A stretch of DNA of 35,725 nucleotides from a virus, in IMG/VR virus record IMGVR_UViG_3300021057_000011, positions 1-35,725 of that record; one strand, written 5' to 3'. Position numbers and translations under genes: made by a program. A model generated the notes under the pieces. The model worked only from the letters and a program-made list of their open reading frames with translations, ran no database searches and had not been told where the DNA came from. Of the stretch, positions 3,741 through 35,557 are shown piece by piece. Numbering within the stretch: the first letter of the stretch is position 1; each line of letters starts with the position of its first letter.

Positions 3741-4054
3741 CCCTCACCTCCCGCGCGCGTGCTGCCGCCGGGCTGGGCTGCTACCAGCGGCCGAATGCTG
3801 AGAATCGCCCAGCCGTCCTGTAGCCCGTACGCAGGCCCTGTCATGACACCGAGAACCAAGCAGACTATTTCGCGGCCGGTGTAGACCAAGGGCTTGCCCT
3901 GTGCCATCTCCCCGCCCGTGTACAGGGTTTCTTTCAGGCGCAGTCCGTCGTTCGGCTTGAAATCCCGATCCGCCTTGCGAATCTCAAAGGTCTTGGTGCC
4001 GTCTAAGACTTGCTGAAACACGGGGGAATCGGTTTTGAGTTCGTGGATATTCAT
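3725..4054 (-). CDS. DUF3850 (ASCH/PUA-like) domain protein
   Basis: IHELKT..P.F..V..G.KTFEIRK.DRDF...D.L.L.E...YTGR...GL..GW.ILSI signature. Confidence 0.85.
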   Translation of the reverse strand: MNIHELKTDSPVFQQVLDGTKTFEIRKADRDFKPNDGLRLKETLYTGGEMAQGKPLVYTGREIVCLVLGVMTGPAYGLQDGWAILSIRPLVAAQPGGSTRAGGEGCRSI

Positions 4055-4503
4055 GCGTTGCTTTCCTCTCTGTGATTTGTGCCGCCGGGCTGGGTCTGCT
4101 GCTGGCCCGAGGGCTGAGCTTCTTTTGGGTCATCGCCCTTCAGCAAGCCCAGGTAAGTCTGATACTGCTCTCTCAGCCCCCTGTGCCGCTCTATATTTGC
4201 GGGCGTCGTGGTAATGCTCACCTCGCAGTAGAACGCTTCAAGTAGTTGATTGGCTGCTGCAAACCGTGCCTGATAATCGCCGGCCACCTTGCGGGCGTGG
4301 TCCTGGCCAAAGAGAGCCTCGTCCCGTTCTCGCTCCAGGGTCCGCACCAGGGCGAGCAGTTCCCGGCGATACTCCCAAAAATGATTGGTCATCTGCCGCT
4401 TGAGTTGAGCATCGCCAAGAGCAGACGGAGAAGCATTGATCCATTGCTTCTCCAGATCTTCGAGCATGATGATGTAGTCGGGGGTGGGGGTGGGGTTCGT
4501 CAC
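4051..4503 (-). CDS. Hypothetical coiled-coil protein
   Basis: 150 aa, coupled. Confidence 0.7.
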   Translation of the reverse strand: MTNPTPTPDYIIMLEDLEKQWINASPSALGDAQLKRQMTNHFWEYRRELLALVRTLERERDEALFGQDHARKVAGDYQARFAAANQLLEAFYCEVSITTTPANIERHRGLREQYQTYLGLLKGDDPKEAQPSGQQQTQPGGTNHREESNA

Positions 4504-4862
4504 GCTATAAATCCTCCGTTCATCAAATCCCGTGATTCCGGGGTGCTGTTGTGCTCTTTCCAGCGCTCGAATTCCTCTTGCAGGCTGTCGAGCCGCTCCT
4601 GCAGGTCTTCCTTGTCCCGCCTCGCCGCCGCGACCTCGTCCCGCAGCCGGCGCAGGAGGGGCAAGCCATCGTTTCTCAGGCTGATCAGAAGCTCGGCATC
4701 ATTCATCCCGATGTTCGATACCTCGACCACCACAGGCTTTGCGGCAGATGCGAAATACCCGAGGGCAGAGTGGATCACCTCAAGCCTCCACGGCCCCGGT
4801 GTCGCCTCTGCGTCCAGGGCCTCGAAGCGGGCGATCGCCTGGTCGATGTCGTCGATGGTCAT
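4500..4862 (-). CDS. Ead/Ea22-like protein
   Basis: EALDAEATPGPW and DAELLISLRN...LL motifs; AGGAGG before MTIDD (start shortened relative to track). Confidence 0.65.
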   Translation of the reverse strand: MTIDDIDQAIARFEALDAEATPGPWRLEVIHSALGYFASAAKPVVVEVSNIGMNDAELLISLRNDGLPLLRRLRDEVAAARRDKEDLQERLDSLQEEFERWKEHNSTPESRDLMNGGFIA

Positions 4863-18005: not shown

Positions 18006-19580
18006 TCAGGCGGGTATGAGAGCCCGCAAAAGCGCATAGACAGGGGTTCCTACCTGCCTGTGAGAGCGTGTGGAATGATCCAAGTAGCCGGGATGGTAGT
18101 TGGCGCTTTCCACAAATTCCAGGGCATAGGCCTCGGGGATATAAGCGAGGTGAATATCGACCGCTCCGGGGCTGATGATGAGGTGCTCGACGAGCTGTTC
18201 CAGCTGTCGGTTTTTTTGCTCGGTGGAGAAGTCGTCCCAGTGGGCCAGGACCCGCTGGGCACTCTCGACGGCAGCGGAGGTCGCGTAGGACTGGGTGCGC
18301 AGATGGGCAAGCTCGCCTTCGAGGCGGGGGATTTCCTGCTCGAGGGCTTTTTTCTGGGCCTCGAACTTCGCGTCCATCGCAGCGAAACGCTCCTCGCTCC
18401 ATTTGCCCGAGAGAAAGAGCTGGAAGGTTTTTTCCTGGTCTCTGAGGGTCTGAGCCAGGTCTTTCTTGGCGCCGGCGAGCAGGGTTTCCTTGGCCGTGAT
18501 GTGGGTCTCGAGCTGCTCAATCGGTTGGGTCAGGGCTTCCGGGGCCGCAAAGAAGGTGGTCAATCGCTGCCGGAAAATCGCTTCGAGCACGGTGAGCCGG
18601 ATCTGGGTGTGGCAGGCCCGGCAGCGGAATTTTTGGGTCTTGTGCTGCTTGCGGTCGTCGCAGTACATCTTCTTGCCGCAGTGGCATTTGACAAAGCCAC
18701 TGAAGGGGTAAACCCCTTTCTTGGACTTCGCCGGCGGGCGCTTGGTGTAGTCGGCCATCAATATATGATAGGTGGCCTGCCAGAGCTCCCGAGGGATGAT
18801 CGGCAGGGTGGTGTGGTAGAGCCACTCCGCTTCGGGCTTGGGGAGGCAGGTGCTGGTTTTCAGCCCGCGCTTGAGGGTCGAGTAATTCGCCTTGCGCCGC
18901 CCGATGCCGGTTTCGTCCAGCAGCAGGTAGCGGACCGAGGAATCGCTCCAAGCCCCGCCGCGCTGAGTTTTGTAGCCGCGGCGGTTCATCTCGGTCGCCA
19001 CCGTGCGGCAGCGGCGGTGCTCCAGAAACAGGGTGTGCAGTTCGAGCCGAATCGAGGCCGTGGGCGGATGGGGCACCAGGACCCCGTCCTGCCATTCGTA
19101 CCCAAACGGCGCTTTGCCGCCGAGGTGCTTGCCGAGCTGGGCCCGGACCTTGACACTGGCCACCATGCGTGAGCGGATGTTCTCCCAGTCCCACTCCGCC
19201 AGCACGGCGATGATGCCGTAGAGCATCCGGCCGTGGGGGGTGGAGGTATCGAGGTTCATGTCCAGGCAAATCAAGGCCGCATTTTTTTCCTGGCACAGGT
19301 CCGCGACATTCAACAGCACCTTGCGCCGGCGGGCGAGACGTTCGAGCTTGGAGAACATCAGGCCCTTGATGCGGCCGGCGGTGATATCGTCGACCATGCG
19401 CAGGTACTCCGGGTGCTCCTCGACGATCATGCCGCTGACCCCGTCGAGGACATAGACCGCGGCCACCTCGCGCTGGGAGCGCTCGGCATAGGCTTTGCAC
19501 GCAATCAAATGGTGCTCGAGGCTGTCGGAATCGGGATCATCTTTCGAGACCCGGGCCCACACGCCAACGGGAATACTCAT
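18006..19580 (-). CDS. Large serine recombinase (integrase-like), 524 aa
   Basis: WARVS catalytic Ser; SKLERLAR; LDTSTPHGR; GGKAPFGY; Zn ribbon CHCG...CRAC; coiled coil; GGAGG before MSIPVG. Confidence 0.92.
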   Translation of the reverse strand: MSIPVGVWARVSKDDPDSDSLEHHLIACKAYAERSQREVAAVYVLDGVSGMIVEEHPEYLRMVDDITAGRIKGLMFSKLERLARRRKVLLNVADLCQEKNAALICLDMNLDTSTPHGRMLYGIIAVLAEWDWENIRSRMVASVKVRAQLGKHLGGKAPFGYEWQDGVLVPHPPTASIRLELHTLFLEHRRCRTVATEMNRRGYKTQRGGAWSDSSVRYLLLDETGIGRRKANYSTLKRGLKTSTCLPKPEAEWLYHTTLPIIPRELWQATYHILMADYTKRPPAKSKKGVYPFSGFVKCHCGKKMYCDDRKQHKTQKFRCRACHTQIRLTVLEAIFRQRLTTFFAAPEALTQPIEQLETHITAKETLLAGAKKDLAQTLRDQEKTFQLFLSGKWSEERFAAMDAKFEAQKKALEQEIPRLEGELAHLRTQSYATSAAVESAQRVLAHWDDFSTEQKNRQLEQLVEHLIISPGAVDIHLAYIPEAYALEFVESANYHPGYLDHSTRSHRQVGTPVYALLRALIPA

Positions 19581-20117: not shown

Positions 20118-20152
20118 AAAAGCCCCTGCCGGATTTTTCCAGCAAGGGCTTC
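20118..20152 (-). terminator. Rho-independent terminator
   Basis: GAAGCCCTTGC...GCAGGGGCTTTT. Confidence 0.6.
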
Positions 20153-20207
20153 TGTAAAAACAGCCCTGACTAAGGGGCTTCAGGGCTCTCGATAATGTTA
20201 GATGTCT

Positions 20208-20860: not shown

Positions 20861-21211
20861 TCATACCATGGAACGGGAATACTCCTCCCGGGCATTCAGC
20901 CATTTGCCGTTTTTATAGGCCACAATGTAGCTGCAGTCCTCGAGAATGATGCTCACCACCATGCCCACGTTGAAGTGATCGAGAATGTACACCCACTTGA
21001 TCTGCCGGAAGGGCTCCTGAAAAACGGCAACGGCCTGTTCCACAACGCTGTACTGCGTTTCATTGTCGCCGGCTTCGTAAAGCATCTGGCCCCAGTAGGT
21101 GTGGTTCTCTTCATGAAGCTTGCGGCCTTGAAACGTCCGCCAGGCGCGAATCCCGTTTTGCCCCCGGCCCTCGACTTTCTCGGCCACCTCGAAAAACGTC
21201 TCTGCGCGCAT
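20861..21211 (-). CDS. Hypothetical protein
   Basis: 116 aa, AGGAGG RBS. Confidence 0.75.
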   Translation of the reverse strand: MRAETFFEVAEKVEGRGQNGIRAWRTFQGRKLHEENHTYWGQMLYEAGDNETQYSVVEQAVAVFQEPFRQIKWVYILDHFNVGMVVSIILEDCSYIVAYKNGKWLNAREEYSRSMV

Positions 21212-21285
21212 ACCATCCTCCTGTAAGTAAACGTCCCCATGGAATGGGGAAAAGAGGATCGATCAGATCGTATCATGAAACGGCG

Positions 21286-21556
21286 AAACCCTCCGGGAGG
21301 ATCTTTCGATCGCCGGAGGGCTTCAGGAGAGCGCCGAAGCGCTCAGGGGTGCTGCAGATGCGCGGGAGGAGAGTTGCCCCTCTCCCGGGGCCGGGCTGAG
21401 CCCATCCCACACGGCCGAAGCCGGGGAACAAACCGCCTGACGCACACCCTTGGCCGAAGCCACTATGCCCGCCGGAGCGGGTTTCTGCCTGCCGGGCAAC
21501 GGGTCCCGGGGTTAACCGGAAGGCCGCCGGCAGAGGAGGGAGCCATCTGCAACAAC
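21286..21556 (-). ncRNA. Candidate multi-branched structured ncRNA of unknown class
   Basis: 11-bp closing helix TGTTGCAGATG/CATCTGCAGCA; hairpins with cUUCGg (x3), cUCCGg, GCAA and GAAA loops, all on the minus strand; AT-rich promoter-like region upstream; no credible ORF. Confidence 0.65.
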
Positions 21557-21618
21557 TTCATCATAACCTAATCTTAAACGGATGCCTAGTCCCCTAGCTA
21601 AAAATTTTTGAAAAAAGT

Positions 21619-22044
21619 TTAGGGGGCACTGAAAAGGGTGGGGGTTTTGGTATCGTCCTCGAGCAATTCGAAACGACCCTCGGCGGTAGCCAGGTAGACG
21701 ACCACGGGCTTTCCCTGCGCCCGCAGCTTGCAGACCGTATCGTAGGTGCCGCGGCTTTCTTTGAGGGGCTTGTCGACGATGGCGAGGCCGGCATTGGCAT
21801 CCCGGGCGATGAAGGTGTTGCGCTTGAACCCCGCCACCTTTCCGTATTCATCCCACTTAGCCGGGTGGATAATCGGCGGCTGAAGGGACAGACTGGTCGT
21901 CAGAGGCATCGTAAAGCCATCGGCTCCTCGAGCTCCTCCAGACACCAGCTGGGTTGTCTCGGGGAAGTGCTGCTTCACCGCCCGCAGGGCCTCGACCACA
22001 TAAGTGGGAGAGACGGTGCGGGATCCGATCATGGCGAGTTTCAC
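21619..22044 (-). CDS. SLOG superfamily YspA/DUF2493-like protein
   Basis: MIGSR...VSGGARGAD...AKWDEYGKVAGFKRN...SRGT.DT.......GKPV; GTG start with GTGA overlap. Confidence 0.85.
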   Translation of the reverse strand: MKLAMIGSRTVSPTYVVEALRAVKQHFPETTQLVSGGARGADGFTMPLTTSLSLQPPIIHPAKWDEYGKVAGFKRNTFIARDANAGLAIVDKPLKESRGTYDTVCKLRAQGKPVVVYLATAEGRFELLEDDTKTPTLFSAP

Positions 22045-22286
22045 GATCGCTGCAGCTCCTTCATCTGATGTTTGTGAATGCGGGATAAATTGATCCGGTT
22101 CACGCCCAGCTCCAGAAGCCGGGCGGTTTGGTAGCGCAGCAGCCGCTGGGGATTTTTCCGGCCGCTGGCAATGGCGCTGACCGAGCAGCCGATCAGGCGG
22201 GCGAACTGGGCATCGCTCAGGCCCAAGAGCTCTTTGGTATAGAGGGCCTCGTCCCACGAGTAGGTCAATTGCAAGGGTTCACGCAT
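22041..22286 (-). CDS. Cro/XRE-like HTH protein
   Basis: LGLSDAQFARLIGCSVSAIAS. Confidence 0.6.
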   Translation of the reverse strand: MREPLQLTYSWDEALYTKELLGLSDAQFARLIGCSVSAIASGRKNPQRLLRYQTARLLELGVNRINLSRIHKHQMKELQRS

Positions 22287-26826: not shown

Positions 26827-26847
26827 CACGGTTTACATACAATCGGA

Positions 26848-34937: not shown

Positions 34938-35557
34938 GATACGTCTCTCCATTTACGCTGTTGTTTCCAGGGGACGGATGACTGACCGGTACGTTGCATG
35001 TATCGCTCGGCCGCCTCAATGTCAGCCAGCTTGACATACAAAACATTGCGAATCTTGACGGAGTCGATGTACCCATCACGGGCAGCGTCCCCAATCGTAT
35101 TCCCGGAGGCATGACCGTATCCGAGCCGTTTGGCTGCCTGCCTGGCGGTCAAGGCCGGCCAGGGGGCGCGGGTACGCAGATAGATCTGGATCAAAGGCTC
35201 AGCGGCATCCAACGGGACCATCCAGCGCCGACCGATTTTCTCCGCCTGAAGGAAACCAGTCTCCACCCGGTACTTCAAAACGTCCTTCTTTATGTTCAGC
35301 ATGTTGGCCAACTCAATCAAAGTGTAATGGGTTGGATAGCTCTCGAGTTCGGTACACCCCAGAACCCGTGCGGCTCGCTGGATGGTCGAGACATTGTACT
35401 GCGTCCCGAATTTCATATTGAAAGCCTCGGTACAGCCCTTACGGCCCCGGCGCGGATATTCCTTACGCACGAAGGCTTTCATGGCGTCACTCCAGCGCGA
35501 CGAAATCGAGTGTGTCACCCGTCGAGGACCTCCGCCCAGGTCGTTCCGTTGGTCCAC
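34934..35557 (-). CDS. DNA-binding protein with tandem excisionase-like (HTH_17) domains; start uncertain
   Basis: YTLIELANMLNIKKDVLKYRVETGFLQAEKIGRRWMVP and LTARQAAKRLGY...IDSVKIRNVLYV. Confidence 0.75.
   Translation of the reverse strand: MDQRNDLGGGPRRVTHSISSRWSDAMKAFVRKEYPRRGRKGCTEAFNMKFGTQYNVSTIQRAARVLGCTELESYPTHYTLIELANMLNIKKDVLKYRVETGFLQAEKIGRRWMVPLDAAEPLIQIYLRTRAPWPALTARQAAKRLGYGHASGNTIGDAARDGYIDSVKIRNVLYVKLADIEAAERYMQRTGQSSVPWKQQRKWRDVS

Follow-up and report, generated by a model that had tools for sequence, protein, structure and literature searches.

What occupies a 407-nt stretch without a called gene (positions 21212–21618) inside an otherwise tight operon of a phage genome? A preliminary description of this locus had proposed an unclassified, multi-branched structured RNA of ~270 nt, and we wished to know whether such an RNA is plausible, whether it belongs to a known family, and what it might do. 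The stretch of DNA analyzed here (the window; 35,725 nt) makes up the first 35.7 kb of an IMG/VR virus record that measures 101,449 bp and is ~80% complete. The record represents an uncultured long-tailed phage, with genes for a family A DNA polymerase, a DnaB-like helicase and an SPP1-type portal, a major-tail-protein-like gene, and a 2870-aa ORF that we took as the tape-measure gene, judged by its size and position. A large serine recombinase gene lies at 18006–19580, and the long ORFs that fill the genome are all on the minus strand. The gap was delimited by the gene call in the only other assembly known, a Logan contig (L003; run SRR7004167), in which a packed small-gene operon runs to 21619 and is followed by the 407-nt gap and a 116-aa ORF from 21211. 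This second assembly is 100% identical across the gap and therefore carries no comparative information.

The element within the gap (21282–21558) is real: it is non-coding, strand-specific and heavily structured. Its GC content by codon position is flat (0.70/0.67/0.68), compared with ~0.6/0.4/0.77 in each of seven neighboring genes, and its overall GC content is 68.6%, compared with 59.7% for the genome. A plus-strand ORF of 110 aa in this region is Arg/Gly/Pro-rich and of low complexity. Four ORFs overlap the element, the one just mentioned among them, and Pfam gave no match for any. Three other long gaps in the genome are AT-rich (43%–44% GC, from a crude gene map that is unreliable around the element and was used for the AT-rich gaps only). 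The GC skew of the genome was uninformative on the reading of the element as an origin of replication.

The folding statistics point to structure on the minus strand. Among 724 windows of 280 nt covering the whole 101-kb genome, the element ranked first, with the lowest GC-corrected minimum free energy (MFE). Against dinucleotide shuffles, the minus strand of a 301-nt stretch had a z-score of −3.27 and its plus strand −1.68; the score was −3.67 for the full 367-nt leader and −4.25 for the 3′ module (fold of 21190–21350). The core alone (213 nt) reached only −1.78, with 11 out of 200 shuffles folding equally well, and scored +0.07 on the plus strand. The fold is strand-specific because it includes nine G·U pairs. 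We also counted UNCG- or GNRA-capped hairpins whose stems reach 4 bp or more; across the genome these average 0.96 per kilobase of transcribed strand. All six of those in the element lie on the minus strand, the plus strand having none, with ~0.27 expected per 280 nt, making this cluster the unique maximum in 101 kb and bearing out the earlier count of six such tetraloops on one strand. The local hairpins, together with the non-coding and strand-specific nature of the element, are thus solid.

We examined the predicted anatomy of the RNA on the minus strand, where every helix listed in the preliminary description was found at its coordinates. In the MFE structure, the centroid and the pair probabilities, a core domain of ~205 nt (21350–21554) is closed by helix P1, which encloses a predicted five-way junction with P2–P6. 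P1 (21554–21542 with 21363–21350) contains an 11-bp helix (21554–21544 with 21360–21350) of 10 Watson–Crick pairs and one U·G, and its pair probability is ~1.0 in every context folded. It is followed by a single-stranded joining segment, J1/2 (UCCCUCCU, 21541–21534), and then by P2 (21533–21489), by P3 (21480–21433), by the UUCG hairpin P4 (21423–21412), by P5 (~21403–21388) and by the GCAA hairpin P6 (21386–21364). Pair probabilities exceed 0.85 for P1, P2, the tip of P3, P4 and P6; P5 and the P3 base are uncertain. The arm noted earlier that combines CUGCCGG/CCGGCAG with UUCCGG/CCGGGA is present, as are the GGGAG...CUCCC hairpin and the four small hairpins, but two of the hairpins compete with other pairings: CCCGC-UCCG-GCGGG has a probability of ~0.13, the long P3 arm being preferred thermodynamically, and GGGC-UCA-GCCC (P5) has a second register.

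How unusual is this architecture? In 35 kb of coding DNA there are about five long-range inverted repeats of 12–14 bp (~1 per 7 kb), so P1 taken alone is at the level of chance. Since the core is marginal against shuffles, P1 is unexceptional and alternative registers exist, we regard the five-way junction as a prediction. The structured, strand-specific character claimed at the outset therefore stands, and the single multi-branched fold is a thermodynamic model of it. We noted in addition an imperfect 10-nt inverted repeat, TATGATGAAG / TTTCATGATA (21557–21566 and 21273–21283), that brackets the element and overlaps the −10 box of the predicted promoter; whenever transcription reads in from the operon upstream, this repeat could pair into an outer helix (P0) below P1.

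The region upstream of the core carries a putative transcription start. The stop codon of the upstream gene is immediately followed by an A/T-rich tract (AAACTTTTTTCAAAAATTTTTAG, 21596–21618, minus strand) in the position of a possible UP element, and then by a predicted sigma-70-like promoter, TAGGCA-17-TATGAT (21560–21588, minus strand), identified by consensus match only. From 23477 down to 17330, the promoter scan found no other promoter-like site on the minus strand. Transcription is predicted to start near 21556–21552, and P1 begins 2–5 nt later. Two boxes had been noted just upstream of the RNA; TATGAT lies within the scanned promoter, and TAAGAT was not listed by the scan.

Two hairpins follow the core on the same strand. 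The first is GAGCGC-UUCG-GCGCUC (21329–21344). The second is a 13-bp hairpin, AAGCCCUCCGG/CCGGAGGGUUU, with an inner GAUC-GAAA-GAUC tip (21284–21325), followed by a poor U-tract, CCGUUUCAUGAU. Our terminator scan, which requires a GC-rich hairpin with an immediate U-rich tract (at least five U in eight), did not list the second hairpin as an intrinsic terminator on account of its U-tract, so the stem with its inner GAAA hairpin described earlier as terminator-like is there but is a poor terminator by this measure. The same scan lists the canonical terminators of the phage at 26827–26800 and 20153–20118, both of them single hairpins. The distal leader (21209–21283, minus strand) then ends at the start codon at 21211. 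Here AUCCUCU is predicted to pair with GGAGGAU, the Shine–Dalgarno sequence of the 116-aa ORF, around a 7-bp hairpin, UCCCCAU-UCC-AUGGGGA (21250–21234). The pairing probability of this Shine–Dalgarno sequence is 0.93, which ranks seventh among 87 genes (top 8%; genome median 0.66).

Three small orphan ORFs (116, 68, and 93 aa) lie 3′ of the element, and a strong canonical intrinsic terminator with a 16-bp stem and a T-rich tail (20118–20153, minus strand) closes the unit that begins at the element. No promoter-like site was found between the element and these ORFs, and their mRNA must therefore traverse the element, originating either at the 21588–21560 promoter or by read-through from upstream. 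The first of them, the 116-aa ORF (20861–21211, minus strand; gene call in L003), is probably co-transcribed with the element. A search of 1.84 billion protein cluster representatives returned the 116-aa protein itself and two weak partial matches (E = 6e-07 and 2e-05). Those matches fall in short repeated segments of 953- and 1272-aa proteins, in 7–9 matched stretches, which hints at a repeat-like motif. The ORF has no Pfam, PHROG or PADLOC match, its AlphaFold2 model is unusable (pLDDT 46), and the ESM Atlas model is likewise too poor.

The upstream neighbor is a DprA/SLOG-like gene of 141 aa (21619–22044, minus strand; gene call plus sub-threshold profiles), which can be extended to a 212-aa ORF. 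Its protein matches PF02481 below the cut-off (E = 4e-4) and phrog_289 (E = 4e-15). An Xre-like helix-turn-helix (HTH) ORF of 81 aa (PF20432, E = 0.002, below the cut-off) overlaps its start, and the pair spans 21619–22286 on the minus strand. The RNA had been placed downstream of SLOG and HTH genes; the position of the SLOG-like gene is as described, and both family assignments fall under the Pfam cut-offs. We observed that the SLOG-like ORF weakly resembles two PADLOC models, PsyrA (E = 3e-5) and ShosA (E = 3e-3). These are the DprA-like antitoxins in the defense pairs PsyrTA and ShosTA, so the ORF could be an antitoxin mimic.

Does the element belong to a known RNA family? The preliminary description had recognized no known RNA consensus and had proposed a covariance search of Rfam. 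That search, with Rfam 15 (4227 models) at the gathering threshold, gave no match anywhere in the genome, inside the window or beyond it. The models cover RNase P, SRP, 6S, tmRNA, riboswitches, ribozymes, and group I and II introns, as well as pRNA, GOLLD, ROOL, HEARO, raiA and YrlA. Relaxing the threshold to E up to 10 over 21150–21700 produced two chance matches only, to eukaryotic models. ARAGORN found no tRNA or tmRNA gene in the window or in record positions 35001–101449. The absence of a recognized consensus is thus supported.

Four specific candidates were considered and rejected. A retron msr-msd would call for a reverse transcriptase, and none (PF00078) was found in the 101-kb, ~80% complete record, while control genomes were matched by the same model; the next gene is the 116-aa orphan. 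For a Y RNA of the YrlA type, the record has no Ro60/TROVE gene (PF05731) and no Rfam match. For a type III antitoxin RNA, Tandem Repeats Finder returned no rows, the direct repeats present being hairpin cores of 8–10 nt only. For a group I intron, RF00028 gave no match even at E up to 10, and the element is not an intron because the two flanking ORFs are independent. The upstream ORF ends in a TAA stop, with its DprA-like domain near the ORF C terminus (extrapolated from a short Pfam alignment), and the downstream ORF has its own Shine–Dalgarno sequence and ATG and no homology to the upstream one.

We searched widely for relatives. Blastn in its distant mode found nothing like the RNA among GenBank phages and PLSDB plasmids, and neither a genome search nor short-word blastn of the gap found a second copy in the phage itself. 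A covariance model of the RNA (R1; 213 nt, 59 bp) had no match in 55 related phage records (five GenBank phages and 50 IMG/VR records sharing the portal family). There was likewise none in 113 loci selected by pattern scans, which used a J1/2 16-mer, a three-junction pattern (in metagenomes), a triple cUUCGg pattern and a J4/5 16-mer and were filtered by R1. A screen of 156 candidate-host genomes with R1 gave nothing credible. The element is single-copy and was seen in one phage only (two assemblies, 100% identical). One R1 match within the phage genome (25.9 bits; 47484–47639, equivalent to L004 12484–12639, minus strand) was rejected as a paralogue, and we judged it spurious because P2 is deleted and it sits in the helicase-domain coding sequence of the DnaB-like helicase ORF. 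As a separate observation, three GCTTCGGC words at hairpin-like spacing occur at more than 118 IMG/VR loci, far above the expectation for uniform composition; of the 80 such loci checked, none fits R1.

The neighboring genes were no more helpful. With billions of proteins searched, no useful relatives emerged for the SLOG-like protein (212-aa ORF as query), the 116-aa protein or a DUF2786 protein from their cassette, so synteny yields nothing, and both flanking genes and the whole early cassette appear, by these searches, to be orphans. The closest portals have 46% identity, and the 21-kb contigs that carry them do not include the region of the element. A distantly related phage contig (L008; portal 46% identical) contains an 860-nt AT-rich gap (3873–4736) in which a motif similar to CAACTATAAAAAACTAACAATTATTTATAGTT recurs many times; the gap has the look of an iteron or origin region and is unrelated to the element.

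A hint about the host came from a solitary I-E-like repeat in the phage (17454–17482, minus strand). Its core, GTTCCCCACGAGCGTGG..ATGAAC, is found in multi-repeat CRISPR arrays (loci L114–L136), mostly in beta- and gammaproteobacterial metagenome-assembled genomes, chiefly Burkholderiales, Sulfuricella, Methylobacter and Cellvibrionaceae. The 352 spacers extracted from those arrays include no match to the phage, so the repeat serves as a host hint only.

Taking these results together, our tentative preference is that the element is a structured leader or attenuator that may also release an RNA of ~275 nt. Three features make this the likeliest reading: no other promoter precedes the three ORFs, the U-tract is poor, and the Shine–Dalgarno sequence is predicted to be paired. 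A leader of ~345 nt would start at its own sigma-70-type promoter near 21555 and be transcribed with the downstream genes. From 5′ to 3′ it would comprise the ~205-nt closed five-way-junction domain, the UUCG-capped hairpin, a leaky terminator or attenuator hairpin, and the helix that pairs the Shine–Dalgarno sequence. Polymerases halting at the leaky hairpin would release a stable RNA of ~275 nt, and those reading through would produce the mRNA of the three small orphan ORFs, up to the terminator at 20153–20118, with translation of the first ORF damped by its paired ribosome-binding site. The large 5′ domain may set the balance between these outcomes, through binding of an as yet unknown factor or through its own folding. 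We infer the ends of the transcript, leaky termination, occlusion of the Shine–Dalgarno sequence in vivo and a sensing function.

Several findings count against a structured leader. The element has no homologue in the collections searched, and so neither covariation nor conservation of the RNA or of its association with the downstream gene. Inspection revealed no mutually exclusive antiterminator pairing, as distinct from the predicted Shine–Dalgarno/anti-Shine–Dalgarno pairing, and a classical riboswitch would have no use for the separate UUCG hairpin that stands between P1 and the terminator-like stem. Pairing of Shine–Dalgarno sequences is common in this GC-rich genome, as the median given above indicates, the z-score of the core is only −1.78, and P1 is statistically unexceptional.

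We compared the layout with that of known regulatory leaders. In attenuating leaders and riboswitches, a terminator or a helix that sequesters the Shine–Dalgarno sequence comes after a large aptamer-like domain, and the lysine riboswitch is built on a five-way junction. The element resembles them in its position, lying in a predicted 5′ UTR just 5′ of the next ORF, on the same strand and 3′ of a promoter-like site. It also resembles them in its parts, a closed multi-helix junction of ~200 nt, a terminator-like hairpin and a predicted helix occluding the Shine–Dalgarno sequence. It differs in having no Rfam riboswitch or leader match even at E up to 10, no antiterminator that we could see, and an extra UUCG hairpin between the domain and the terminator-like stem; the genes 3′ of it are phage orphans that give no metabolic clue.

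Phages have read-through systems of their own. In lambda, the PR′ 6S transcript ends at tR′ and the system works through the Q protein, and the put elements of HK022 are processive-antitermination RNAs. Compared by layout alone, the element is similar to such phage leaders: a promoter, a structured RNA of ~200–300 nt, a terminator, and then an operon reached by read-through. The put RNAs, by contrast, are two-hairpin elements of ~70 nt, and the lambda 6S leader has no comparable multi-branched domain. Type III toxin–antitoxin systems (ToxIN-like) are arranged as a promoter, an antitoxin RNA of tandem direct repeats, a leaky terminator and a toxin ORF. The element shares that order of parts (promoter, structured RNA, leaky hairpin, small ORF) but has no tandem repeats, and the 116-aa ORF has no match to PADLOC, Pfam or PHROG models.

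A second reading, possible but in our estimate rather unlikely, is that the locus encodes a stand-alone, stable, trans-acting RNA of ~275 nt, bounded by the promoter and the 3′ hairpin. Its role would be that of a scaffold, a decoy or a component of a ribonucleoprotein, directed, for example, at a host defense protein or an RNA-binding protein, and read-through into the ORFs would be incidental. The closed domain, with P1 beginning 2–5 nt past the predicted start and protective hairpins at the 3′ end, has the traits of a stable RNA, and the six hyperstable tetraloops also speak for this reading. The location in an early or accessory region, next to the DprA-like gene with its weak likeness to the PsyrA and ShosA models, also fits. 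On the other hand, no partner protein can be identified among the orphan neighbors, and the low pLDDT (46) of the 116-aa model is of no help in this respect. The loops show no recurring motif for protein binding. Given how poorly the 3′ hairpin qualifies as a terminator, there is no guarantee of a discrete 3′ end, and the downstream ORFs have no other promoter-like site.

We consider it unlikely that the element is a set of stable hairpins, each folding on its own and not joined in one tertiary fold, acting as intercistronic stability, processing or pause elements that shield the 3′ end of the upstream operon and the 5′ end of the downstream mRNA. The statistical signal does stem from the local hairpins and the 3′ module, the global fold of the core beats shuffles only marginally, repeats of the P1 type arise by chance about once per 7 kb, and several core helices have alternative registers. 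Yet ~290 nt and eight hairpins far exceed what such elements need, P1 forms with a probability of ~1.0 in all contexts folded, and elsewhere in this genome three other long gaps are AT-rich (by the crude map) and the canonical terminators are single hairpins. A non-functional, GC-rich relic of a decayed gene or a mobile-element scar that folds by chance is improbable: the element is single-copy, in one phage, and flanked by the imperfect 10-nt inverted repeat TATGATGAAG / TTTCATGATA, but a strand bias of six UNCG/GNRA hairpins to none and nine G·U pairs are unexpected for decayed coding DNA, the overlapping ORFs have no Pfam match, and no other copy exists in the genome.

Could the element be the founding member of a new class of phage RNA? 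GOLLD, ROOL, raiA and HEARO are large orphan noncoding RNAs of bacteria and phages that were found through the criterion of long, GC-rich intergenic regions (PMC6429828, PMC11109978). They share with the element a long and relatively GC-rich intergenic region, an ornate predicted structure, a phage context and an unknown function. The element is far smaller than GOLLD or ROOL, matches none of the four Rfam models, and is a singleton, whereas those classes are defined by many covarying homologues. We would give only a slim chance to a new class in a rare lineage that lacks sequenced relatives, with the element as its sole sequenced member to date, in which a ~205-nt five-way-junction sensor of a host or phage factor would gate an early or accessory cassette by the integrase module, or the RNA would be a trans-acting decoy or scaffold directed against a host system. 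Were the fold to be confirmed along with a regulatory or trans role, the element would be a new family among the few large structured phage RNAs, located in an accessory-gene region next to the integrase. More generally, candidate RNAs can be spotted in phage genomes by long, GC-rich gaps, and rare phage lineages limit comparative validation, in that a singleton without relatives cannot be promoted beyond candidate.

Finally, we noted that an 8-nt motif resembling an anti-Shine–Dalgarno sequence (UCCUCCCG) occurs twice on the minus strand, in the 3′ strand of P6 (21363–21370) and in the terminator-like hairpin (21294–21301), 69 nt apart. Related CCUCC motifs are found in J1/2 (21541–21534) and just 5′ of the occluded Shine–Dalgarno sequence, bringing the total to four to five anti-Shine–Dalgarno-like copies within ~330 nt.
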